A stretch of 64,000 nt of DNA. Source: Candidatus Omnitrophota bacterium (lineage in GTDB: Bacteria; Omnitrophota; Gorgyraeia; Gygaellales; Profunditerraquicolaceae). The stretch is taken from NCBI GenBank assembly GCA_003598025.1, contig QZKH01000006.1, positions 172,035-236,034 of the forward strand. Reading direction: 5' to 3'. Every line of letters begins with the position of its first letter. The first letter of the stretch is position 1. A program made the translations under genes and the position numbers. The notes beneath the pieces are model-generated. The model saw only the letters and a program-made list of their open reading frames with translations. It was not told the origin of the DNA and made no database searches. Below, in pieces: positions 3,005 through 64,000 of this stretch.

Positions 3005-4327
3005 ATGAGAAAGAAAGCCGCATTTTTTCTTATTTTAGCGGTAATATTCCTATCGCGTTTTATCCTGGTAATAGCCGGCCAGGATTTAATGGGCGATGAC
3101 GGCTTTCAGTATTTAACACGCGCAGAAAATTATTTAAAATACGGGATTCTTTCTCCTGACCGCGCAGATTCTTTCCGTAACCAATTCATAGACTCTCCGT
3201 TATACCCAATACTGCTTTCATGTTTCTTAAGAGTACTTAACAGCAAAATTGCAGCTGTCAGGTCTATATGCATGCTTAATTCCGTTTTTTTTATATTAGC
3301 AGCTTGCGCCGTATTCTTCCTGGCATATCGGCTTAGTAAAAAATACCTGGTAGCGCTGTTTTCTCTGGCAGTATTTGGCATGATGCCGGAAGGATTTGTA
3401 TATTCAATCCTTAATATGCCTGATAGTATGTTTCTGGCATTTTTTATATGGTCGAATTATTTTTTTGTCAGTTATTTTGGTTGTAACAGATGGAGGCGTT
3501 TAGCTTTAGCTTCATTCTTGCTTGGTATGAGCGTATTAATCAAGCCTATATCGCTTTTATTTATTTTAGTTTATGTTGTGTTGATAATTTCTTTTGATAA
3601 GAATGATTTCAGGCGCAGGGTAAAAATTGCAGTTTTATGCATTCTTGTGCAGATGTTTACCTTGTCACCCTGGTTAATAAGGAATTATCATGTATATAAA
3701 GAGATTTTCTTCAGCACGAAAAAAGACATCCATCTCTATTATTATGATTACCGTTTTATACTGGAAGATATCTATGGCAAGGAAGCAGCCGGCAGTATGA
3801 TAGAACAAAAAGCTAGGGAGATCTTCTCAAATATCGATGTAAATTCCAGGGATTCTGTTAAAGCTATACATGTTTTGGGTGGCTTTGCCAAAAAGGAGAT
3901 ATTCAGTAATTTCAGTTCCTACGCAACTCTCCTTATTAAAAGGCATCCGCGCCTTTATTTTGGCACAGGCACCGTTCAATTGCTGACTTTAACCGGAGAC
4001 GCAAGCGGCGCTCAGGCTTTGTATGAGTTTGGAAGGCAGCCGGCGCTAAGCATGCTTCGAAGACTTCCGGTGTATGTTATGACTTTGCAGCTTTTTTCAT
4101 GGATACTGCTCTTTTTAATTTATTTGTTATCGATTGCAGGATTAATGCGCATTATAGTTAAAAGAAAATGGGAAACACTTGTCCTTTTATCATTAAGCTT
4201 TTTATATTTTGTCATACTTGTCGGTCCGGCAACTCACACACGGTATAGGTTTGATTTCTCTTATTTGTTCGCTATATTATGCGGGTTTGTATTATATGAA
4301 ATAAAATCTTCTTCCGAAAATATATGA
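3005..4327 (+). CDS. GT-C fold membrane glycosyltransferase (GT39/ArnT/PMT-like)
   Basis: 440 aa polytopic membrane protein. N-terminal TM followed by a loop with acidic DDG..Y motif typical of polyprenyl-phosphate-sugar dependent GT-C enzymes. Confidence 0.45.
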   Translation: MRKKAAFFLILAVIFLSRFILVIAGQDLMGDDGFQYLTRAENYLKYGILSPDRADSFRNQFIDSPLYPILLSCFLRVLNSKIAAVRSICMLNSVFFILAACAVFFLAYRLSKKYLVALFSLAVFGMMPEGFVYSILNMPDSMFLAFFIWSNYFFVSYFGCNRWRRLALASFLLGMSVLIKPISLLFILVYVVLIISFDKNDFRRRVKIAVLCILVQMFTLSPWLIRNYHVYKEIFFSTKKDIHLYYYDYRFILEDIYGKEAAGSMIEQKAREIFSNIDVNSRDSVKAIHVLGGFAKKEIFSNFSSYATLLIKRHPRLYFGTGTVQLLTLTGDASGAQALYEFGRQPALSMLRRLPVYVMTLQLFSWILLFLIYLLSIAGLMRIIVKRKWETLVLLSLSFLYFVILVGPATHTRYRFDFSYLFAILCGFVLYEIKSSSENI

Positions 4328-5736
4328 ACCTAATTTTAGTAAACCCATATTCACATTCGATATCCGGAGTAAACAAGGCGACTATTGAGCCTCCGGTTGG
4401 CCTGGCTTATATCGCGGCGTTATTGGAATCAAGAGGATACAATTGCCAGATTATTGATGCGCAGATTATGGGTTTATCTTCGCATGAGCTTTTACGCGAA
4501 ATAAGAATACAGCCTGATTTAATCGGGATATCATCAAGCATAGTTACTTATCCTGCCGCACTCGATACAGCCAAAGTATTAAAAGAGGCATTTAAAGGCA
4601 CTCCAGTTATTTTCGGAGGCCCGCACCCTTCGTCGATACCTGAGAAAGCCCTGCAGAATGATTGTGTGGATGCTGTTGCTGTCGGAGAGGCTGAAGCCAC
4701 TATGCTGGAAATCGCCCGGCGATTTAAGGACGGGGAGCATTTATTCTCCGGAATAGAAGGGGTAATATATAAAAATAATGGTGAAGTTGTTACAAACAGC
4801 CCTAGGAAACTTATCGAAGATTTAGATGCATTGCCTTTTCCGGCGTACCATCTTTTACCCGGATTTAAATTGTATAAAAGCAGGGCAAGAAAATCCCCGG
4901 TTGCTCCGCTATTGACTAACAGGGGATGCCCTTACCAGTGTACTTTTTGTAATAAGGATATATTTCAGAGGCGTATCCGTTCAAGGAGCCCGGAAAACGT
5001 TATCAAAGAGATTGACTGGTTGGTAAATAAATTCTCAGTAAAGCAGATAGATATTTTGGATGACAACTTTAATTTTGATTTGAACCATGCAAAGCAGATT
5101 CTAGACTTGATCATTGATAGGGATTATAGCTTGGCTATAAATATGCAAAATGGAATACGGGCAGATAATGTTGATCCCCAGCTTCTTGATAAAATGAAAA
5201 AAGCCGGGGTTTTTAAGATAGGCTTCGGCATTGAAACCGCAGACCCGCAGGTACAAAGAAAAATAAAGAAGGTACTTGACTTGGATAAGATAATAGGCAT
5301 AACCAGGCAGGCGCAGGAAAAGGGTATTATTGTTTATGCAAATTTTATCATCGGCCTGGTCGGGGATAGCCAGGAATCAATGCAGAGGACTATTGATTAT
5401 GCCGTGAGGCTCTCTCCTGATATCGCAAATTTTATGATAGCTTTGCCTTTACCCGGGACCGAGCTTTATAAAGAGATAGAAGAGAAAGGGAAGTTCCTGG
5501 TCAATGTAGATGGCGGTGTTGAAAAGGGATTCTATGGCAATCAGGTATTTTATGAAATAGGTTCATTAAACAAAGATATGGTGTTAAAATATTACCGTAA
5601 GGCATACCGGGATTTTTATATAAGGCCTGGACGTTGGGCCCGGTTAATAAGAAGCATACGTTCGGTTAATGAATTGATATGGTTTAAAGACGCGATATTT
5701 GATCTTATAAAGAATATGCTAATCAGAAACAGGTGA
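4324..5736 (+). CDS. B12-binding domain radical SAM protein (class B)
   Basis: Cobalamin-binding-like N-terminus (VIFGGPHPS...AVAVGEAE). CX3CX2C (RGCPYQCTFC). Start overlaps upstream stop by 4 nt (ATGA). Confidence 0.8.
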   Translation: MNLILVNPYSHSISGVNKATIEPPVGLAYIAALLESRGYNCQIIDAQIMGLSSHELLREIRIQPDLIGISSSIVTYPAALDTAKVLKEAFKGTPVIFGGPHPSSIPEKALQNDCVDAVAVGEAEATMLEIARRFKDGEHLFSGIEGVIYKNNGEVVTNSPRKLIEDLDALPFPAYHLLPGFKLYKSRARKSPVAPLLTNRGCPYQCTFCNKDIFQRRIRSRSPENVIKEIDWLVNKFSVKQIDILDDNFNFDLNHAKQILDLIIDRDYSLAINMQNGIRADNVDPQLLDKMKKAGVFKIGFGIETADPQVQRKIKKVLDLDKIIGITRQAQEKGIIVYANFIIGLVGDSQESMQRTIDYAVRLSPDIANFMIALPLPGTELYKEIEEKGKFLVNVDGGVEKGFYGNQVFYEIGSLNKDMVLKYYRKAYRDFYIRPGRWARLIRSIRSVNELIWFKDAIFDLIKNMLIRNR

Positions 5737-6471: not shown

Positions 6472-8363
6472 CCGCAAGCATAAACTATAACGAATTTTGG
6501 GTAAGCCTTTTTGATACAATGGATGATATTATTTTTATTGTTGATAAGGAATGTAATATAAAAAAGGCAAATAGCGCCTTTTTGCTGGCTATGAACAGTG
6601 AGGAAAAGAACTTTATTGATAAGAAATGCTATGATGTTCTTGGCAGTTGCTGTTGCGGTGTTAACTCTTGCCCGCATAAGGAGACCGTAAATGCGGCTAA
6701 GCTTACGACATCCGAATATTATGATGACAGGCTTAATAAGTGGTTTCACTTACGCAGCGCTCCGTTATTTGACAAGAATAATGCTGTATGCGGCTCTATA
6801 TGCGTGCTGATCGATATTACTGAGCATAAGGCTAAAGACGAGGAATTAGAGGAATTAAGCCAGGCTGTCGAGTTAAGCCCGACTTGTGTTATGATTACTG
6901 ATGCCGATGCCAATATTGAGTATGTTAATAAAAAATTCCTTCAGTTAACAGGATACGCCCTTGAGGAGGTTATTGGCAAAAACCCGCGAATATTAAATTC
7001 AGGAGAGCAAGATAAGGAATTCTACAAAAAGCTATGGGATACCATACTCTCCGGTGAAGAATGGAGAGGCCAGTTCCATAACCGGAAAAAAAACGGGCAA
7101 TTATACTGGGAGTCTGCCTTAATTTCATCAGTCAAGAATAAAGACGGTAAGATTATTCATTTCATAGCCGTAAAAGAAGATATTACCGAACGTAAAAAGA
7201 TGGAGGAAAGCCTGCTTGCTGCAAATGAAAGGTTAAAGGAGTTAGACAAGTTGAAGTCAGAATTTGTCGCTACTGTCTCTCATGAGTTAAGGACGCCTTT
7301 GTCAATTATGAAGGAGGGGGTTTCATTAGTTATAGATAAGGTTACAGGGCCTTTGAACGGGCGGCAGGAAAAAACCCTGGAAACAGTTTTTTCTAATATA
7401 GACCGGTTGACTCAGCTCATCAATGATTTATTGGATATATCAAGGATAGAGTCCGGTAAACTTCGCCTAAAGAAGAGTTTTATAAATGTTTCTGCACTTT
7501 TAGATGATACATGTTCTAAAATGAGGATACAGAGTGACTCTAAGCACCAGCAGCTACTTTGCTATATCCCGGATAAACCTGAATATCTGTTTGTTGACCA
7601 GGATAAATTTATACAGATCCTTACGAACATAATCTCAAATGCTGTCAAATATACCCCTGAAAACGGGATTATAACAGTAAGCTTGCAGGGTAAGGATGAA
7701 TCCGTTGAGTTTAGAGTGATTGATAACGGTTCGGGTATATCCCGTGAGGACCTGCCGAAGTTATTCGGAAAATTCGCGCAATTCGGGCGCAGCCCCGGTG
7801 CCGGGCCTAAAGGCACAGGTTTAGGCCTTGCAATAACCAAAGAGCTTGTTAATATGCATAAGGGCAGTATTTGGGTGGAGAGTGATTTGGGTAAAGGGAG
7901 TAAATTCGTCATTTCTTTGCCAAGAATTGAATGTATCGATATTTTTAAGGAGTCTGCAGGCAAGCTTATTGATGATGCCTTAAAAGAAGACAAGCCGATT
8001 ACTTTTATCTTATTGCAAATAGACAATTCTAACGAAATTATCAGTAAATATGGTTTCGCAGAATTTAACCTGGTATTGAGGAATATCGAAAGCGAAATAA
8101 ATAAAGCCTTAAGAGGCAAGGAAGATGTTGTGCAGGTTGGTAAGAATGAAATTATTATTTCGTTATTCGGCGTTGGTAAAGATACTTCCGGGATTGTTTA
8201 TGGCAGGATTGAAAACATTATAAGAGAGTATATTTTAAAATCAGGCTTACAATCAGCAAAGGAGCTTAAGACAAAAGCCGTCTTTATAAGCTATCCCGAG
8301 GAAACTAAGAACATAGAGGAGCTGTTAGCAAAGGTAAGTTGTTCTTCAGTTAAGAATGAATAG
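6468..8363 (+). CDS. PAS-domain sensor histidine kinase with C-terminal GGDEF-like (degenerate) domain
   Basis: Two PAS-like blocks. HisKA H-box ATVSHELRTPL. HATPase_c G-boxes (GTGLGLAITKELV, GKGSKF). An extra ~170 aa C-terminus resembles an inactive diguanylate-cyclase fold. Cys-rich GSCCCGVNSCPHKE near the N-terminus. Confidence 0.8.
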   Translation: MTASINYNEFWVSLFDTMDDIIFIVDKECNIKKANSAFLLAMNSEEKNFIDKKCYDVLGSCCCGVNSCPHKETVNAAKLTTSEYYDDRLNKWFHLRSAPLFDKNNAVCGSICVLIDITEHKAKDEELEELSQAVELSPTCVMITDADANIEYVNKKFLQLTGYALEEVIGKNPRILNSGEQDKEFYKKLWDTILSGEEWRGQFHNRKKNGQLYWESALISSVKNKDGKIIHFIAVKEDITERKKMEESLLAANERLKELDKLKSEFVATVSHELRTPLSIMKEGVSLVIDKVTGPLNGRQEKTLETVFSNIDRLTQLINDLLDISRIESGKLRLKKSFINVSALLDDTCSKMRIQSDSKHQQLLCYIPDKPEYLFVDQDKFIQILTNIISNAVKYTPENGIITVSLQGKDESVEFRVIDNGSGISREDLPKLFGKFAQFGRSPGAGPKGTGLGLAITKELVNMHKGSIWVESDLGKGSKFVISLPRIECIDIFKESAGKLIDDALKEDKPITFILLQIDNSNEIISKYGFAEFNLVLRNIESEINKALRGKEDVVQVGKNEIIISLFGVGKDTSGIVYGRIENIIREYILKSGLQSAKELKTKAVFISYPEETKNIEELLAKVSCSSVKNE

Positions 8364-8371
8364 TCTTGATG

Positions 8372-8434
8372 GTTAGTTCATAGTTCATGGTTCATAGTTT
8401 ATGGATTATCTATAACCATCAATCATGAACTAAT
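8372..8434. repeat. GTTCAT-heptad palindromic intergenic element (copy 1) between convergent genes
   Basis: Tandem GTTCATR heptads (TTAGTTCATAGTTCATGGTTCATAGTTTATGG) bounded by inverted termini GTTAGTTCAT ... ATGAACTAAT. Lies between the convergent kinase (+) and DJ-1 (-) genes. Confidence 0.5.
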
Positions 8435-9586: not shown

Positions 9587-9605
9587 ATTCATCATTTTAT
9601 AGCCC

Positions 9606-9645
9606 TCTCTGCCTGTTTAACAGGCAGAGAGGGGCGTTTTTGTTA
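9606..9645 (+). terminator. Rho-independent terminator
   Basis: Perfect 13-bp stem CCCTCTCTGCCTG / CAGGCAGAGAGGG with 6-nt loop, followed by GCGTTTTTGTT U-tract. Lies immediately after the 9152..9586 stop. Confidence 0.65.
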
Positions 9646-9653
9646 AAGTACCT

Positions 9654-10052
9654 ATGCTACGAAAATTGATATTCTTAATAGGCCTTTGCTTCATTTTAAG
9701 CGGCTGCTGCAGCATCTTAAATAACAGGGTATGCTTATTAAAGAGATTTTCAGCTAACAGGTCAGGGATCGAGAGCCTGTTGAACAGGCAGGAAGACGGT
9801 TTTTACCGCCTTCGTGACGATATAAAGAATAACAAATTAAAAACAGGGTTAAGTAAAAATAAAATAATCTCAGAATATTATTCCCCGGTTTTTTCGTATT
9901 TAAGGGATAAAGACAAAAATATCACTAAAGTACTGGTATACAGGCATCCTACTGAATACTTTTCCTCGGAGTTAATATATCTTTTCTTTGACAGGCGCAA
10001 CAGGCTTACCGCATGGCAGCTATTCGAACCGCCAGACTTAAGCGTATTATAA
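9654..10052 (+). CDS. small lipoprotein, unknown function
   Basis: Signal peptide with lipobox ILSGCC. No recognisable domain. Confidence 0.4.
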   Translation: MLRKLIFLIGLCFILSGCCSILNNRVCLLKRFSANRSGIESLLNRQEDGFYRLRDDIKNNKLKTGLSKNKIISEYYSPVFSYLRDKDKNITKVLVYRHPTEYFSSELIYLFFDRRNRLTAWQLFEPPDLSVL

Positions 10053-10067
10053 ACCCTTTAATTAAAA

Positions 10068-12026
10068 TTATGAGCGATTTTGTTTCTGGATGGTCTTTAT
10101 AAAAGCAAGCAGCCTGTTCTTTATTTCCGGGTTCATTCCGACGAATTCAATGCCGGTTTTGAACCTGTTTTTATGCTCATCCGAATTTTTTATCCATCTT
10201 ACCTTGCCGTTTAGCTTGAGGCGTTGCTTATTTATTAACTCGAAGTTCATGCTGATCGAAGAATCAGTATCAAGCCTGCTTTGTGTTTCAATGCACATTC
10301 CTCCCCTGGAGATGTCTATTGCCTGTGTTAGCTCGGGCTTTTTTTCTGATAGTATTTCTATTTCGGCTTTATAATTTATTCTTTTAGCTCTTCTTAACTC
10401 CGAGCCTATAAGGATCTTTTTTATCATTATATTAGCGGCGACCTTTTCCTGTGAATGAGGTTGATTTTCTGCGGGATAGGAAATCACCCCTATATTTATG
10501 AATACATTTTCAACCTTATTCCTGGAGAAATAATCTTTTATCCTGGATTTTAATGATTCGCAAAGCTGGTTTACTTGTTTCTCGTTTTTTGTGGTATAAA
10601 CCAGCCCAAAAGTGCCTTCCCGGTAGTCTTTAAGTATTACCTCTGCAGCGGCATGCGCGCCGGCTGATTTTTTTATTACATCCAACAGCAGTATATCCAG
10701 GTCCCTGAATAATCTCTTTGGTTCGGTTTTTACCCTGTTTTTGAATTTCCTGAAATTTATAATGTTAAGATTCACAAGATAAGCCTTCTCTCCGCTTTGG
10801 ATAACGGCATTTATCTTTTCTTTAACCTTAGGGCTGATTTCGGCAGTAGTATATATGCCCGATAAAGTAAAGAAGAACTTGCTTCCTATTCCGGGTCTTG
10901 ATTCACACCATATTTCTCCGCCGTGCCTTTCTACCAGCTCTTTGGTAATGGAGAGGCCCAGGCCCAATCCTTTTATTTGCTGGGCTATATTTTTTGATAC
11001 CTGAACAAATTTATTAAATAATTTGGGAATATCGTCTTTTGAAATGCCTATGCCGTCATCAATTACGCCTATCCTTATTTTATCCTCAAGTATCTTTACC
11101 TCGATTTTAATGTGGCCGTTTTCTTGGGTAAACTTGATGGCATTAGATAAAAGATTCGAAATGCATTGGTATATCCTTTCCGGATCAATAAAAATGTTTA
11201 TCTGCTTTTTAGGCAGGTCAAAGGAAACCCGGATTTGTTTTTGGGCAGCCAAATTCAAAAAGTCCTGATAAGATTGCAGGAGGAGATCGTTAAAGTTCAC
11301 AAGAGAGAAATTGACCCTAAGTGTCCCTTTTTCTATCCTGGAGATATCAAGGAGGTCTTCGATTATTTTTCTGAGCCTCTCCGTATTATTCCTGGCTTTA
11401 TATAACAGTTCCTTTTGCTTTTCATTAAGCGGCCCGGTTATTTCATCATGAAGCAGGAGTATTATTTCTTTGATTATTGACAAAGGGGTTCTTAATTCAT
11501 GGGAAACAATTGAAACAAAATCGGATTTCAGTTTGTTTAAATCTTTTTCAATCTCCAATTTTTTTTCAAGCATGCCTTTTTCGTTCTTGAGATAATCCAG
11601 CTGCATGCGGTGGGTGATATCCCTGGTTATGCCCATAAGGCCGATTATTTTGCCTTCTTTATCGAACCTCGGTATTTTTGTTGTGCTGACATAATTATCT
11701 ATGCCGTCAGGCCGGGTTGCCCTTTCGATTTTATCGATTATGGGATTCCCGGTCCGGATAACGAATTTATCGTCTTCAGCCATTTTTTTTGCGCGGTCTT
11801 TGGGAAAAATGTCAAAATCAGTTTTTCCAATGACCTGCTTGGGTTTTAAGCCTAAGCCTTTGGCGTGTGCTTCATTTACGAGTAGCAATTTGCCTTTTTT
11901 ATCCTTAAAGTATATTACATCGGGGATGTGGTTTATGAGGTCGGAGAGTAATTCGTATTTATTTTGTATATTGTTTCGGGAGCCCGGGTCGCTAATAAGG
12001 GGGTTAATGATTCTTTTTCTTGTCAT
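10068..12026 (-). CDS. PAS sensor histidine kinase with C-terminal GGDEF-like region and PilZ domain
   Basis: H-box SIVSHELRTPLSI. HATPase_c (GLGLGLSITKELVERHGGEIW, GIGSKF). C-terminus has PilZ signature motifs RRAKRINYK (RxxxR) and DISRGGMCIE (DxSxGG). Paralog of 6468..8363. Confidence 0.8.
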   Translation of the reverse strand: MTRKRIINPLISDPGSRNNIQNKYELLSDLINHIPDVIYFKDKKGKLLLVNEAHAKGLGLKPKQVIGKTDFDIFPKDRAKKMAEDDKFVIRTGNPIIDKIERATRPDGIDNYVSTTKIPRFDKEGKIIGLMGITRDITHRMQLDYLKNEKGMLEKKLEIEKDLNKLKSDFVSIVSHELRTPLSIIKEIILLLHDEITGPLNEKQKELLYKARNNTERLRKIIEDLLDISRIEKGTLRVNFSLVNFNDLLLQSYQDFLNLAAQKQIRVSFDLPKKQINIFIDPERIYQCISNLLSNAIKFTQENGHIKIEVKILEDKIRIGVIDDGIGISKDDIPKLFNKFVQVSKNIAQQIKGLGLGLSITKELVERHGGEIWCESRPGIGSKFFFTLSGIYTTAEISPKVKEKINAVIQSGEKAYLVNLNIINFRKFKNRVKTEPKRLFRDLDILLLDVIKKSAGAHAAAEVILKDYREGTFGLVYTTKNEKQVNQLCESLKSRIKDYFSRNKVENVFINIGVISYPAENQPHSQEKVAANIMIKKILIGSELRRAKRINYKAEIEILSEKKPELTQAIDISRGGMCIETQSRLDTDSSISMNFELINKQRLKLNGKVRWIKNSDEHKNRFKTGIEFVGMNPEIKNRLLAFIKTIQKQNRS

Positions 12027-14700: not shown

Positions 14701-15918
14701 ATGCAGTCCTATAGATATAAAGCAAGGGATAATTTCGGCAAGCTTGTAGATAATATTATGACTGCTGATTCTGAGCTGGCAGTAGCTAAAAAGCTTAATC
14801 AGCTGGGATATATTCCTATCTCTATCCACCCAATCCATGAAAATAATGAGTTTTTTGCCAGGCTTTTCGGAAGATTTGGTAATGTTTCAATAGGGGACAT
14901 TGCCATGTTTACCAGGCAGTTTTCTGCTTTGCAGAAAGCCGGTATCCCTATCAGGGTAAGCCTCAATGCATTAAGGGAGCAAGCTACAAACAAGACCCTT
15001 AAGAGGACCATTGATTCTGTCATTAAAGATATAGAGGCCGGTATGCTTCTATCCGGTGCTATGGCTAAACATCCCAAGGTTTTTAGCGAGTTGTATATTA
15101 ATATGATCACTGCAGGTGAGGCCAGCGGTTTATTGGATGAGGCGCTTGACAGGCTCGCTGTTCTTTCAGAGCATGACGAGTCAATAAGGCTTAAAATTAA
15201 GGCAGCAACACGATACCCCGTAATTGTTGTTATAGCGATAGTCCTTGGTTTCCTGGTGCTTACTACGATGGTCGTACCCAGATTTGCAAAAATATACAGT
15301 CAGTTTACGGTACAACTTCCATTTCCAACGCGGGTATTAATAGGCATTAATTATGCTGTTACCAAATTCTGGTGGCTGATTATTTTGCTAGGAGGTATTT
15401 TTGCCTATTTGTTCAAGAGGGTAATAAAAACCGATTCAGGGAGGATCTGGTGGGATACGATCAAACTTAAAGTCCCTATTTTTGGCCCTTTAGTTTTGAA
15501 GCTGACCATGTCCAGGTTTGCGCGTATAAGCGGTACATTGTTGAAAGCAGGCGTGCCGATTTTGAATGTTTTGGATCTTTCAACCAAGGCCACGGGAAAT
15601 GTTGTGGTCTCCAGAGTGATTGAAAATATAAGGGTTAATGTCAGTGAGGGCAAAGGGATGACTGAACCGATGAAAATCAGCGGCATGTTCCCGCCGGTAG
15701 TAATACAAATGGTTTCAGTAGGCGAGAGCACGGGTAAATTGGATGAGTTATTAATGCATGTTTCCAATTATTATGACTCGCAGGTCGATTACACAATAAG
15801 CAATCTGACCACGCTCATTGAACCGATATTAATATTTGTCCTGGGGTGCATTGTTTTGTTTATGGCGCTTGGTATATTTCTACCGGTATGGAACTTGATG
15901 AATGTGTTTAAGAGATAA
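14701..15918 (+). CDS. pilC: type IV pilus platform protein PilC (GspF family)
   Basis: Duplicated T2SSF domains, three TM segments, ~405 aa. Immediately downstream of pilB. Confidence 0.9.
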   Translation: MQSYRYKARDNFGKLVDNIMTADSELAVAKKLNQLGYIPISIHPIHENNEFFARLFGRFGNVSIGDIAMFTRQFSALQKAGIPIRVSLNALREQATNKTLKRTIDSVIKDIEAGMLLSGAMAKHPKVFSELYINMITAGEASGLLDEALDRLAVLSEHDESIRLKIKAATRYPVIVVIAIVLGFLVLTTMVVPRFAKIYSQFTVQLPFPTRVLIGINYAVTKFWWLIILLGGIFAYLFKRVIKTDSGRIWWDTIKLKVPIFGPLVLKLTMSRFARISGTLLKAGVPILNVLDLSTKATGNVVVSRVIENIRVNVSEGKGMTEPMKISGMFPPVVIQMVSVGESTGKLDELLMHVSNYYDSQVDYTISNLTTLIEPILIFVLGCIVLFMALGIFLPVWNLMNVFKR

Positions 15919-15926
15919 AGGCAGGA

Positions 15927-16071
15927 TAGTTCATGGAGCGTAGTTCACAGATTACAGATATAGCTACATGGAGACACAAAGACACCAGGTCACCTGCCTA
16001 CCGGCAGGCAGGCAAAGTCACAGTTTTTCTTGTGTCTCATAGCTGTGAACTGTGAACCGTGCACTGTGCGC
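15927..16071. repeat. large nested palindromic element (GTTCA-motif family, copy 2)
   Basis: Nested inverted repeats AGTTCACAG/CTGTGAACT, GAGACACAA/TTGTGTCTC and CCTGCC/GGCAGG around a centre near 16000. Shares a TGTGAACCGTGC 12-mer with copy 3. Confidence 0.5.
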
Positions 16072-16101
16072 TAATATAATCTCCTTGCAAATAATATCGC
16101 T

Positions 16102-16906: not shown

Positions 16907-16917
16907 TCTTATTTAAT

Positions 16918-16963
16918 GAGGCGGCTGGTAATCCGTTGTTCATAGCGTATTACCGGCTGCCTC
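16918..16963 (+). terminator. stable stem-loop downstream of pilA (terminator/attenuator-like, no U-tract)
   Basis: 15-bp stem GAGGCGGCTGGTAAT/ATTACCGGCTGCCTC (two G-U pairs). 16-nt loop containing GTTGTTCATAGCG. Confidence 0.4.
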
Positions 16964-16987
16964 AAGTTACTCACTTCCTTAGAGGAG

Positions 16988-29844: not shown

Positions 29845-29890
29845 AGTTGTATTTTACAATATAATAAGTTAAATTAAAGATAAAAATTAC

Positions 29891-29968
29891 ATTAGTTCAT
29901 AGTTGATAGTTCATTGTTCATGGAAATGGCATTATCTGTGAACCGTGCTCTATGAACCATGAACTAAT
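29891..29968. repeat. GTTCAT-heptad palindromic intergenic element (copy 3) in divergent crtB / cyclase promoter region
   Basis: Perfect 10-bp terminal inverted repeat ATTAGTTCAT...ATGAACTAAT flanking GTTCAT/GTTGAT heptads and the shared TGTGAACCGTGC block. Confidence 0.5.
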
Positions 29969-62674: not shown

Positions 62675-62709
62675 ATGCCTTATTTTTAGCTGCATAATAT
62701 TAAACATAT

Positions 62710-64000
62710 ATGTCATTAAACAACAGCATAAAATTCAGATATATTGTTTTTGCGGTGATTGTATTGTATTTCTTGCCTCTATTTATCCAGATTACAACGC
62801 AGCCAAAGCCGTTTTTAAGATTTTCTTTGCCGTATATTTTCACCCAGTTTGTTGATGAACATCAATATTTTATAATGTTAAACAGCATTTTAAAAGACGG
62901 AGACCTGGATTTAAAGAATAATTACCAGAATATAGCGTTCAACGGTTCTTCAGACGGCGGCATGCTTACCAGGGGCAGAATTGTTGAGAGGAATACATTT
63001 GTAGTCAATAAGCAGGGAATACGTGTTGCAGACGGCAATGACCCGTCTTATTACAGGGATGCTTTTATTAGCGGAGAGCTTAAAGCAGGGAACAACAGCT
63101 ATGAGCTTAGCCAGTTAAAGGAATACTCTCTTAGCTCTCCCGGATTGCCGATTTTGCTATCTTTTCTGCTTTTTCCGTTTAAATCGCTACCCGGCCTGGA
63201 GCCGGCAACAATATTCATCAGTACACTGGTTTCTTTGCTGGGGCTTTTTTTTCTGTTCAGATTATTAAGTTGCTTCACTGAAAACAAAAACGCAGCACTA
63301 TTCATTACCTTGTGTTTTGGGTTAGCTACGCCGGTATGGTATTATGCCGGGGTATTTGGGAAAGAGAGTTTTGTATTCTTTTTGTTAAGCCTGGCTTTAT
63401 ATTTATTATTTTGCAGGAAGCGCTATTTATTGGTCGGTTTGGTGATTGCCCTGGCAGCATATATAAGAAACCCTTTGTTTTTATCATCTTTTTTATTCTT
63501 TGTTTATGAATTAAAGCCCGCAAAGGTCAAGGAAAGGTTGCCGCTGATTATCCCCAGTATCTTGATGCTGCCTGTCGTCATCTTTACCCACAGGTACTAT
63601 TGGTATAATTGTTTTATGGAATTAATAATTTATTTATCAGGCAGCGGGCATTATCTAAAATTATTATTTCCTTTTTTAGCAGTTTCTTTTTTGATATCCA
63701 TGGCGGTATTGTCGGGTTATAGCCCGGTAAGTAAAAGATTGAAAATCTGGTTATACGCGGTATCTTTACCGGCATTCACATCTCTATTGTATATAGCTTT
63801 AAAGAACGCAGGAGTTTTGTTTGGTTTTATGTTTTCTTTGGAATACGGATTGCTTACCTTTACCCCGTTCATCATTTATTCTTTTTTTGGGCTGGCGCTT
63901 ATCTTTAAGAAAGACAAAAGATTATTTAGCTTTATACTGGTCAATACACTGCTGTTATTTCTGTATTACGCAAATTTCTGGGACCGTAGGGAACCCAATC
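62710..64000 (+). CDS. polytopic membrane protein (GT-C/PMT_2-like?), 3'-truncated by window edge
   Basis: ATG at 62710. Frame open to the last base with no stop. About 10 TM helices. Not in the ORF track because no stop codon lies within the window. Confidence 0.4.
   Translation, partial: MSLNNSIKFRYIVFAVIVLYFLPLFIQITTQPKPFLRFSLPYIFTQFVDEHQYFIMLNSILKDGDLDLKNNYQNIAFNGSSDGGMLTRGRIVERNTFVVNKQGIRVADGNDPSYYRDAFISGELKAGNNSYELSQLKEYSLSSPGLPILLSFLLFPFKSLPGLEPATIFISTLVSLLGLFFLFRLLSCFTENKNAALFITLCFGLATPVWYYAGVFGKESFVFFLLSLALYLLFCRKRYLLVGLVIALAAYIRNPLFLSSFLFFVYELKPAKVKERLPLIIPSILMLPVVIFTHRYYWYNCFMELIIYLSGSGHYLKLLFPFLAVSFLISMAVLSGYSPVSKRLKIWLYAVSLPAFTSLLYIALKNAGVLFGFMFSLEYGLLTFTPFIIYSFFGLALIFKKDKRLFSFILVNTLLLFLYYANFWDRREPN

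Follow-up and report, generated by a model that had tools for sequence, protein, structure and literature searches.

REP and BIME sequences, like those of the REPIN-RAYT system, are short extragenic palindromes, often convergent or intercistronic, that can form hairpins in transcripts, and miniature inverted-repeat transposable elements (MITEs) are exemplified by the Correia elements and by Nezha of cyanobacteria. Arrays with a short fixed unit can also be read by proteins: the omega repressor of inc18 plasmids binds WATCACW heptads arrayed in direct or inverted orientation, and HutP binds UAG-N4 repeats. In cyanobacteria, short tandemly repeated repetitive (STRR) heptanucleotides, with units such as CCCCAGT and TTGGTCA, were reportedly described by Mazel et al. 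in 1990. Here we follow up a preliminary description of a 64-kb stretch of DNA (the window, meaning the whole stretch analysed) from a metagenome-assembled genome (MAG) of a Candidatus Omnitrophota bacterium with a G+C content of 38.6%, which carries three intergenic palindromes, at 8372-8434 (copy 1), 15926-16075 (copy 2) and 29891-29968 (copy 3), where R-GTTCAT heptads stand opposite ATGAAC-Y.

As Mrazek (2007) is summarised in PMC4679880, heptanucleotide repeats outnumber every other class of long simple sequence in many prokaryotes, and polymerase slippage was proposed for them. TAACTGA heptamer repeats occupy many intergenic sites in Beggiatoaceae, Cyanobacteria and Bacteroidetes (MacGregor 2015, PMC4679880); their distribution among phyla is patchy, indels between related strains come in steps of 7 nt, there is no evident mechanism of transfer, and they comprise 169 direct sets and one indirect set, mostly just upstream of start codons (PMC4679880). 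TTTTGAT heptad repeats in the ctxAB promoter are described as recruiting regulators (10.1101/2021.05.14.444153), and in a Nostoc preprint a protein is speculated to bind heptamer repeats (10.1101/2022.06.06.494920). We consider it fairly secure that the three loci of the window consist of a seven-base simple-sequence unit in inverted arrays, of the widespread prokaryotic heptanucleotide-repeat kind, and also fairly secure that they are neither a transposase-mobilised MITE nor a REP/RAYT family. Our preferred reading, with a probability of roughly 0.45, is that they are a heptanucleotide simple-sequence element of the STRR or TAACTGA kind, laid out as inverted arrays that were seeded by copying and have changed size by slippage. 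The elements and their parts are listed below, with the strand where one applies.

8372-8434: copy 1, a 63-bp imperfect palindrome filling the 76-nt gap between convergent stop codons
8373-8409 (+): left arm of copy 1, TTAGTTCAT AGTTCAT GGTTCAT AGTTTAT GGATTAT, five heptads
8412-8434 (+): right arm of copy 1, ATAACC ATCAATC ATGAACT AAT
15926-16075: copy 2, a 150-bp three-tier palindrome lying between the pilC stop and a pilin-like gene
15927-15961 (+): left heptad arm of copy 2, TAGTTCA TGGAGCG TAGTTCA CAGATTA CAGATAT
15970-16038: inner, non-heptad palindrome of copy 2, GGAGACACAA ... TTGTGTCTC around the core CTGCCTACCGGCAGGCAG
16043-16075 (+): right heptad arm of copy 2, CTGTGAA CTGTGAA CCGTGCA CTGTGCG CTAAT, its units aligning one by one with those in the right arm of copy 3
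29845-29890: conserved spacer between copy 3 and the start of a synthase gene, with promoter-like hexamers on both strands and 41 of 43 positions identical in a related contig (L122)
29891-29968: copy 3, a 78-bp imperfect palindrome between divergent genes
29892-29921 (+): left arm of copy 3, TTAGTTCAT AGTTGAT AGTTCAT TGTTCAT, preceded by A
29931-29968 (+): right arm of copy 3, ATTATCT GTGAACC GTGCTCT ATGAACC ATGAACT AAT

Tandem Repeats Finder (TRF) reported period-7 arrays in the whole 64-kb window only at 8374-8404, 16043-16068 and 29893-29921, with 3.7-4.1 units at each locus, and the units were also parsed by hand. The double-unit pattern GTTCATRGTTCAT, with up to two mismatches allowed, gave 11 matches compared with 2.9 expected, 9 of them within the three loci, and TTAGTTCAT had four occurrences (0.8 expected), one precisely at each end of copies 1 and 3. 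These two copies have identical inverted termini of 9-10 nt, and the terminal inverted repeats (TIRs) TTAGTTCAT / ATGAACTAA found at both of their ends were present only loosely in copy 2, whose left end is ATAGTTCAT and not TTAGTTCAT. Copies 1 and 3 also have the loop-proximal motif ATTATCT-RTRAACC in common, while copies 2 and 3 match unit by unit over CTGTGAA-CCGTGCW...CTAAT. The GTTGAT variant of the unit was present as AGTTGAT in copy 3 and as ATCAAT in copy 1, and TA, which is part of the unit, stood at both ends of all three copies. Mean column identity of the three-copy alignment was 54%. Taken together, the results support the three loci as alignable members of one dispersed family, as the preliminary description had proposed, and its three differing contexts, convergent for copy 1, co-directional for copy 2 and divergent for copy 3, were found as given. 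The 12-mer it reported as common to copies 2 and 3, TGTGAACCGTGC, indeed occurs only there (0.06 expected). Its positions held for copies 1 and 3, but copy 2 had to be redrawn from 15927-16071 to 15926-16075; likewise, a heptad build was confirmed by the period-7 arrays at all three loci, and inverted termini in copies 1 and 3, whereas copy 2 lacked the terminus on its left and contained a single exact GTTCAT, its units being mostly GTTCAC/GTGAAC-like and more degenerate than those of the other copies. The source-genome sequence examined amounted to 73 kb, namely the window and 9 kb upstream. The three copies occupy 3 of the 16 gaps of at least 50 nt in the window, and no heptads, degenerate copies included, were found in the window's other 13 intergenic gaps.

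The same unit recurred far outside this genome. A scan for TAGTTCATNGTTCAT in the genomes of 185,579 species, one genome per species, gave at least 120 loci (867 kb). Among the matches listed, 33 of 120 had GTTCAT-type units paired, within 250 nt, with ATGAAC-type units on the opposite side, and the leading period-7 units were AGTTCAT (82 of 322 arrays) and GGTTCAT (25 of 322); at distances above 400 nt from the match through which a locus had been ascertained, 6 of 146 arrays were still exact AGTTCAT or GGTTCAT, where about 0.5 were expected, an approximately 10-fold excess. Isolate carriers among the matches listed were Bacteroidota and Cyanobacteria and included Mucilaginibacter, Niabella, Neolewinella, Pedobacter and cyanobacteria (Coleofasciculus, Symploca, Brasilonema and Heteroscytonema), and MAG carriers, under the taxonomic labels given in their records, included Methylomirabilota, Pirellulales, Zixibacteria, Patescibacteria and others. 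ATTATCT beside RTGAACC, as in copies 1 and 3, was also found in Mucilaginibacter and Niabella loci. A second pattern with 22 fixed bases, TTAGTTCATAGTT-N30-60-ATGAACTAA, matched 96 metagenome loci, representing 88 distinct elements, of which 64 held extra in-phase units on the left of the unconstrained interior and 54 on the right, and a near-identical 24-nt start, TTAGTTCATAGTTGATGGTTCATAG, was shared by many unrelated metagenome contigs. Approximately 81% of the related arrays were intergenic, and their numbers in tandem, divergent and convergent gaps (60, 16 and 13, divergent gaps thus holding 18%) were proportional to the availability of such gaps (330, 98 and 91). A search for the GTTCAT unit in the literature library used returned only primers and unrelated matches and no paper on the unit.

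Two features of these arrays went beyond the occurrence of the unit. When paired arrays were counted under a strand-symmetric definition, 24 had the GTTCAT units on the left and 2 the ATGAAC units, a real asymmetry because the GTTCAT-left arrangement is its own reverse complement. In addition, 340 units sandwiched between consensus units comprised 156 GTTCAT, 55 GTTGAT and 15 GTTAAT, with only 4 of the transition GTTTAT, and A and G alternated at the spacer base. Several other readings, Chi-like recombination signals and DNA uptake sequences among them, were considered and set aside. A link to tRNA genes, or mimicry of the T-arm, was rejected since 13 of 152 arrays lay within 150 nt of a tRNA gene, about the intergenic expectation; integron attC sites have a core, GTTRRRY, that does not fit; arrays of stop codons in all frames would leave the polarity unexplained; and carriage by phages was rejected on the 22-base pattern, for which viral contigs gave no match. 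A denser arrangement was observed in one related locus (L179), where each consecutive intergenic gap (5646-5720, 7230-7300 and about 10130) carried a GTTCAT-type array, far more densely than in the window, flanking open reading frames (ORFs) that resemble by eye a sigma factor and an adenine phosphoribosyltransferase.

Each locus of the window is a long imperfect palindrome because an inward run of R-GTT-S-AT units faces a run of its own complement. The arms of copy 1 are 85% complementary and separated by CT, the right one being shorter and made of more degenerate, complement-type units; those of copy 3 are 79% complementary over 33 nt, with GGAAATGGC between them; and copy 2 is built in tiers, the outer heptad arms enclosing GGAGACACAA/TTGTGTCTC and these in turn a GC-rich CTGCCT..AGGCAG core (CTGCCTACCGGCAGGCAG, 15994-16011). 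Predicted folding energies were −20.7 / −19.9 kcal/mol for copy 1 (z −3.8 / −4.7), −53.9 kcal/mol for copy 2 (z −3.7) and −30.4 / −27.7 kcal/mol for copy 3 (z −5.8 / −5.2), the range over all copies and both strands in comparison with shuffles being z −3.7 to −5.8. Such stable predicted stems on both strands would suit hairpins acting in RNA, which, like REP/BIME sequences in enterobacterial operons, would block 3' exonucleases, set RNase sites or attenuate read-through and so uncouple neighbours such as pilBC and the pilin genes. The placement of the copies is consistent with this: copy 1 starts 8 nt from one convergent stop codon (TAG 8361-8363, +) and ends 5 nt from the other (TAA 8440-8442, −), copy 2 begins 8 nt past the pilC stop (15916-15918), and transcription from a perfect TATAAT at 29860-29865 (+) would run through copy 3 and place it in a 5' leader. 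Between copy 2 and the next gene there was no credible promoter, the only match having its −10 inside an ORF, so that, from these predictions, copy 2 probably lies inside a polycistronic transcript.

The same hairpins, however, have no T-run or GC-rich stem at the three loci, where a terminator scan listed no intrinsic terminator, and related arrays occur in all gap types with no preference for gene 3' ends; the preliminary description was therefore right that they are not simple terminators. Covariance models of Rfam at the gathering score gave no match in the whole window. The arms of related elements were often unequal, with 6 and 2 units in L132, and there was little co-variation between them: native arms paired at −20.5 kcal/mol and chimeric, swapped arms at −19.3 kcal/mol (p = 0.06), a difference so marginal that co-evolution of the arms as a sign of a selected hairpin was rejected. 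Since an element's own arms pair barely better than swapped ones, most of the hairpin potential appears to come from the shared unit. We consider a function as RNA hairpins quite unlikely.

Related loci of other lineages differed by whole 7-nt units. In three aligned syntenic loci (L044, L091 and L047) the arrays had 3, 6 and 10 units, four loci grouped by a common right flank (L132, L160, L173 and L177) had elements 58-65 nt long, and the spacers of tRNA clusters at nine loci held arrays of differing length. In an aligned syntenic pair, L179 had a 79-nt element at site 1 where L205 had a 6-nt unit-like remnant, ATAACA, and 4+4 units at site 2 where L205 had 3 units plus TGAA; residual units but no duplication were found at the edges, and no clean empty sites. 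Within the limits of the pattern, element lengths varied continuously between 54 and 82 nt, with loops unrelated between elements and ragged ends, and pairs of elements diverged at about the same rate as their mostly coding flanks.

At the junction of pilC with the next, co-directional gene, a pilin-like gene (16102), the window differs from its relatives. In four other Omnitrophota, reached through PilC proteins 64-65% identical (the nearest 65%) and therefore giving distant syntenic loci only, this junction measured 8, −4 and 0 nt, and 148 nt without heptads in the fourth. Because the junction spans only 0-8 nt in three relatives and lacks heptads in the fourth, copy 2 is, on this sequence comparison, best taken as a gain in the window's lineage.

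That gain in a compact operon junction could also be expected of a non-autonomous mobile element, a MITE- or REPIN-like palindrome with heptad-rich TIRs recognised in trans by a transposase or RAYT, with slippage secondary. The identical inverted termini of copies 1 and 3, the derived units common to copies 2 and 3, the TA at both ends of all three copies, the inward polarity that TIRs would give, the TTAGTTCATAGTTGATGGTTCATAG start in so many unrelated metagenome contigs and the 79-nt element of L179 facing a 6-nt gap all point the same way. Against this, Pfam scans found no transposase or Y1 (RAYT) domain in the ORFs of the window or in the 9 kb upstream, and by eye, with no domain scan run, no transposase-like ORF was seen between distant arm pairs in related loci; those ORFs resembled by eye host genes (PurH-like, sigma-factor-like and IlvC-like), and an autonomous element with two arms around a transposase was rejected on that judgement by eye. 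No consistent target-site duplication (TSD), of TA or any other flanking sequence, was found in 33 + 88 elements, a check that the preliminary description had proposed; the apparently empty site of L205 retains the unit-like ATAACA and its second site a shorter array; loops and lengths are not conserved; copy 3 was kept at its orthologous site; and viral contigs gave no matches. A REP type is at odds with the variable lengths, the 54% column identity and the lack of a GTAG head, and of the marks of a MITE only the TIRs were found, without TSDs, clean empty sites, a conserved interior or a discrete length. The REP- or MITE-like mobility proposed in the preliminary description was thus not supported, given the lack of a partner enzyme in the examined sequence and of TSDs, the ragged ends, unrelated loops and whole-unit changes between related loci, and the retained site of copy 3, and we judge mobilisation of this kind quite unlikely.

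Further observations concern copy 2 and its surroundings. The JGI annotation places a 40-residue gene at 15933-16055, wholly inside copy 2, where the repeat has almost certainly given rise to a false gene call. The palindrome CTGCCTGTTTAACAGGCAG was found at 9609-9627, at 9775-9791 as a near copy and at 15994-16011; at 9603-9633 it forms a canonical terminator with a T-run, the near copy, 166 nt downstream, falls within an ORF, and the palindrome's CTGCCT...AGGCAG stem is also the core of copy 2, a pattern with no match in 100 shuffles. A PAS-histidine kinase with a C-terminal PilZ domain (10068-12026, −) and two single-domain response regulators adjoin the pilB-pilC-pilin cluster, and this neighbourhood is conserved in distant Omnitrophota (kinase at 1729-3732 in L124 and 4704-6668 in L126). 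The preliminary description had also related the loop of a hairpin at pilA to the family through its GTTCAT. The window contains 27 GTTCAT hexamers (29.3 expected), this one included; as the hexamer occurs at chance frequency and the stem is unrelated GC-rich sequence, the hairpin was rejected as a member. At 16917-16964 a very stable GC-rich hairpin without a T-run directly follows the gene of a 126-aa N-methyl pilin; the 81-nt gap that holds it folds at −35 kcal/mol, and this feature, separate from the heptad family, may be a 3' stabiliser or attenuator of the pilin mRNA.

The divergent neighbours of copy 3 are a squalene/phytoene synthase gene (start 29844, −) and a lycopene-cyclase-domain gene (start about 30005, +), and it was the copy for which a close comparison was available. 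Through the synthase protein (75% identity) we reached L122, a 1.2-kb contig of run ERR15087771, the only comparison for the window's lineage not biased by choice on the pattern and one comprising half of one orthologous element. L122 starts inside copy 3, and its first 24 nt correspond to window 29914-29891 with 24 of 24 positions identical and no change of length, while the synthase gene was 79/90/63% identical at codon positions 1/2/3; at third-position divergence the identity of the arm has P = 1.6e-5. From this comparison, the gene-proximal arm of copy 3 is apparently under sequence constraint, next to a promoter-like region, further promoter-like hexamers being present on both sides of copy 3 and within it. 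Base 1 of L122, the close relative's only contig, falls at window 29914, inside the palindrome, and a contig end at this place is a hint that short-read assemblies break at such elements and that MAGs contain too few of them or truncated ones. For copy 1, whose convergent neighbours are a PAS-histidine kinase-GGDEF gene and a DJ-1 gene (Pfam scans and contig gene tables), an orthologue was sought through the DJ-1 neighbour, and the nearest relatives were no closer than 58%.

The conserved arm of copy 3 bears on another explanation, in which the elements are operator-like arrays, with converging arms and an incidental palindrome, for a DNA-binding protein that oligomerises and takes 7 bp per dimer; the arrays would tune or insulate promoters and gene ends, the number of units altering occupancy or spacing. 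The fixed inward polarity (24 compared with 2), the non-mutational variant spectrum GTT[C/G/A]AT with A/G alternation, the lack of arm co-evolution expected if pairing is not selected, the location of copy 3 amid promoter-like hexamers with its gene-proximal arm and spacer conserved far above the third-position background, and the occupation of divergent gaps at the baseline frequency are all in agreement with it, and the ctxAB TTTTGAT heptads, the protein speculated for Nostoc heptamers and the omega repressor offer precedents. On the other hand, there is no known candidate protein; a reader common to Omnitrophota, Bacteroidota and Cyanobacteria presupposes either very wide conservation or repeated transfer of the protein; at the gene 3' ends where copies 1 and 2 stand, an operator has no obvious task; and unit numbers vary freely between related loci. 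We regard operator arrays as a doubtful explanation.

Under the preferred reading of a heptanucleotide simple-sequence element, a new gap would be seeded by the copying of an existing array, as is suggested by the derived units that copies 2 and 3 have in common, in identical order, and by the fact that relatives have nothing at the junction filled by copy 2. The array would then grow or shrink in 7-nt steps through slipped-strand mispairing, a step pattern seen between related loci of other lineages. Arrays would be tolerated only between genes, where long persistence at a site is possible, their hairpin potential would arise mainly from having the same unit in both arms and not from arm-by-arm co-evolution, and some copies, such as copy 3, would be under sequence constraint. 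Since the grammar of the unit is conserved and the inward polarity fixed, a putative sequence-specific reader of the unit may be involved, most plausibly a protein that binds heptad arrays on double-stranded DNA near promoters or gene ends.

Several points weigh against this reading. The seeding step was inferred and not observed directly. Slippage alone leaves unexplained a 150-bp element in a junction empty in relatives, does not account for the perfect conservation of the copy 3 arm, and does not account for one unit, one variant spectrum and one polarity across unrelated phyla. A pure array model does not predict the two inner tiers of copy 2, which form a true palindrome without heptads. 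No heptad arrays were found in 44 kb from three other Omnitrophota loci or in the 9 kb upstream of the window, leaving three copies in the 73 kb of the source, and the syntenic comparisons among fetched loci, from which the 7-nt steps were read, are biased in that both partners had been chosen for carrying the pattern. Because seeding, polarity, the shared grammar and the frozen arm of copy 3 are unexplained by slippage, a sequence-specific reader was kept in play. In its strongest form, inward R-GTT-S-AT arrays would be a cross-phylum signal with a reader of its own, either a widespread protein taking one unit per 7 bp or an unrecognised copy-and-paste activity that lays down and extends arrays; this we think unlikely, and if true it would account for the common unit, the GTTGAT variant, the A/G alternation, the polarity and the frozen copy.

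Other features of the contig were noted in passing. A group I catalytic intron (Rfam RF00028, 73.5 bits for a gathering score of 50) was found at 4153-4346 (−) of L123, about 4.7-4.9 kb upstream of window base 1; its flanks are T-arm/acceptor-like on one side and D-arm-like on the other and read like a split tRNA gene, and ARAGORN called no tRNA there. At about 5385-5480 and 7318-7415 of L123, a conserved sequence of approximately 95 nt, TATACGTTCGCG...CCGCACCTT...GGATGGAGTGTGTACGCTCAGTATTTCGCTCCAAGAAACCTC..., occurs twice in long gaps upstream of genes, with no Rfam match, and could be an undescribed leader or riboswitch-like element. Within the window, a 424-nt gap between convergent ORFs (62675-63098) has a predicted structure of −86.7 kcal/mol.

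The significance of the family lies in the recurrence, across Omnitrophota, Bacteroidota and Cyanobacteria, of one unit whose variant spectrum is not mutational, in paired arrays that are almost always inward, and in at least one copy that is strongly constrained. As Mucilaginibacter, Niabella and Pedobacter are culturable carriers, a reader protein or an effect on expression is directly searchable. In practice, the palindromes may break short-read assemblies and attract spurious gene calls.

In comparison with known systems, the elements resemble intrinsic terminators in the hairpin that directly follows stop codons at copies 1 and 2, but the stems of the copies are imperfect and AT-rich, 20-35 bp long and with no T-run, quite unlike the canonical terminator of the window (9603-9633). 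With REP and REPIN sequences they share the form of short extragenic palindromes dispersed between genes, with hairpin potential; they differ in having no GTAG-type head or fixed length, in their tandem heptads and whole-unit variation, and in the lack of a RAYT in the examined sequence. MITEs are likewise small, non-coding and intergenic, with TIRs, and copy 2 resembles such a gain in a compact junction, whereas the GTTCAT elements have no TSD, conserved interior or discrete ends, and no partner transposase in the examined sequence. Heptad operators also consist of contiguous 7-nt units, read singly by an oligomerising protein and with unit orientation mattering, but those are single regulatory sites with a known protein, while GTTCAT arrays occupy many sites per genome in many phyla. 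The closest likenesses are to heptanucleotide repeats. STRR sequences reportedly consist of tandem 7-nt units, several per array, at many intergenic loci per genome, and cyanobacteria carry the GTTCAT unit as well; the unit sequence is different, and the GTTCAT arrays form two converging arms with a strong polarity bias in an Omnitrophota carrier. TAACTGA repeats have in common one heptamer in tandem, patchy phyla that include Cyanobacteria and Bacteroidetes, and, as seen for GTTCAT arrays in other lineages, 7-nt length steps, but neither rotation nor complementation turns TAACTGA into AGTTCAT, and the GTTCAT elements are inverted pairs with no positional preference. The GTTCAT elements are set apart from the known heptad repeats by the unit, its paired inward arrangement and the phylum that carries it.

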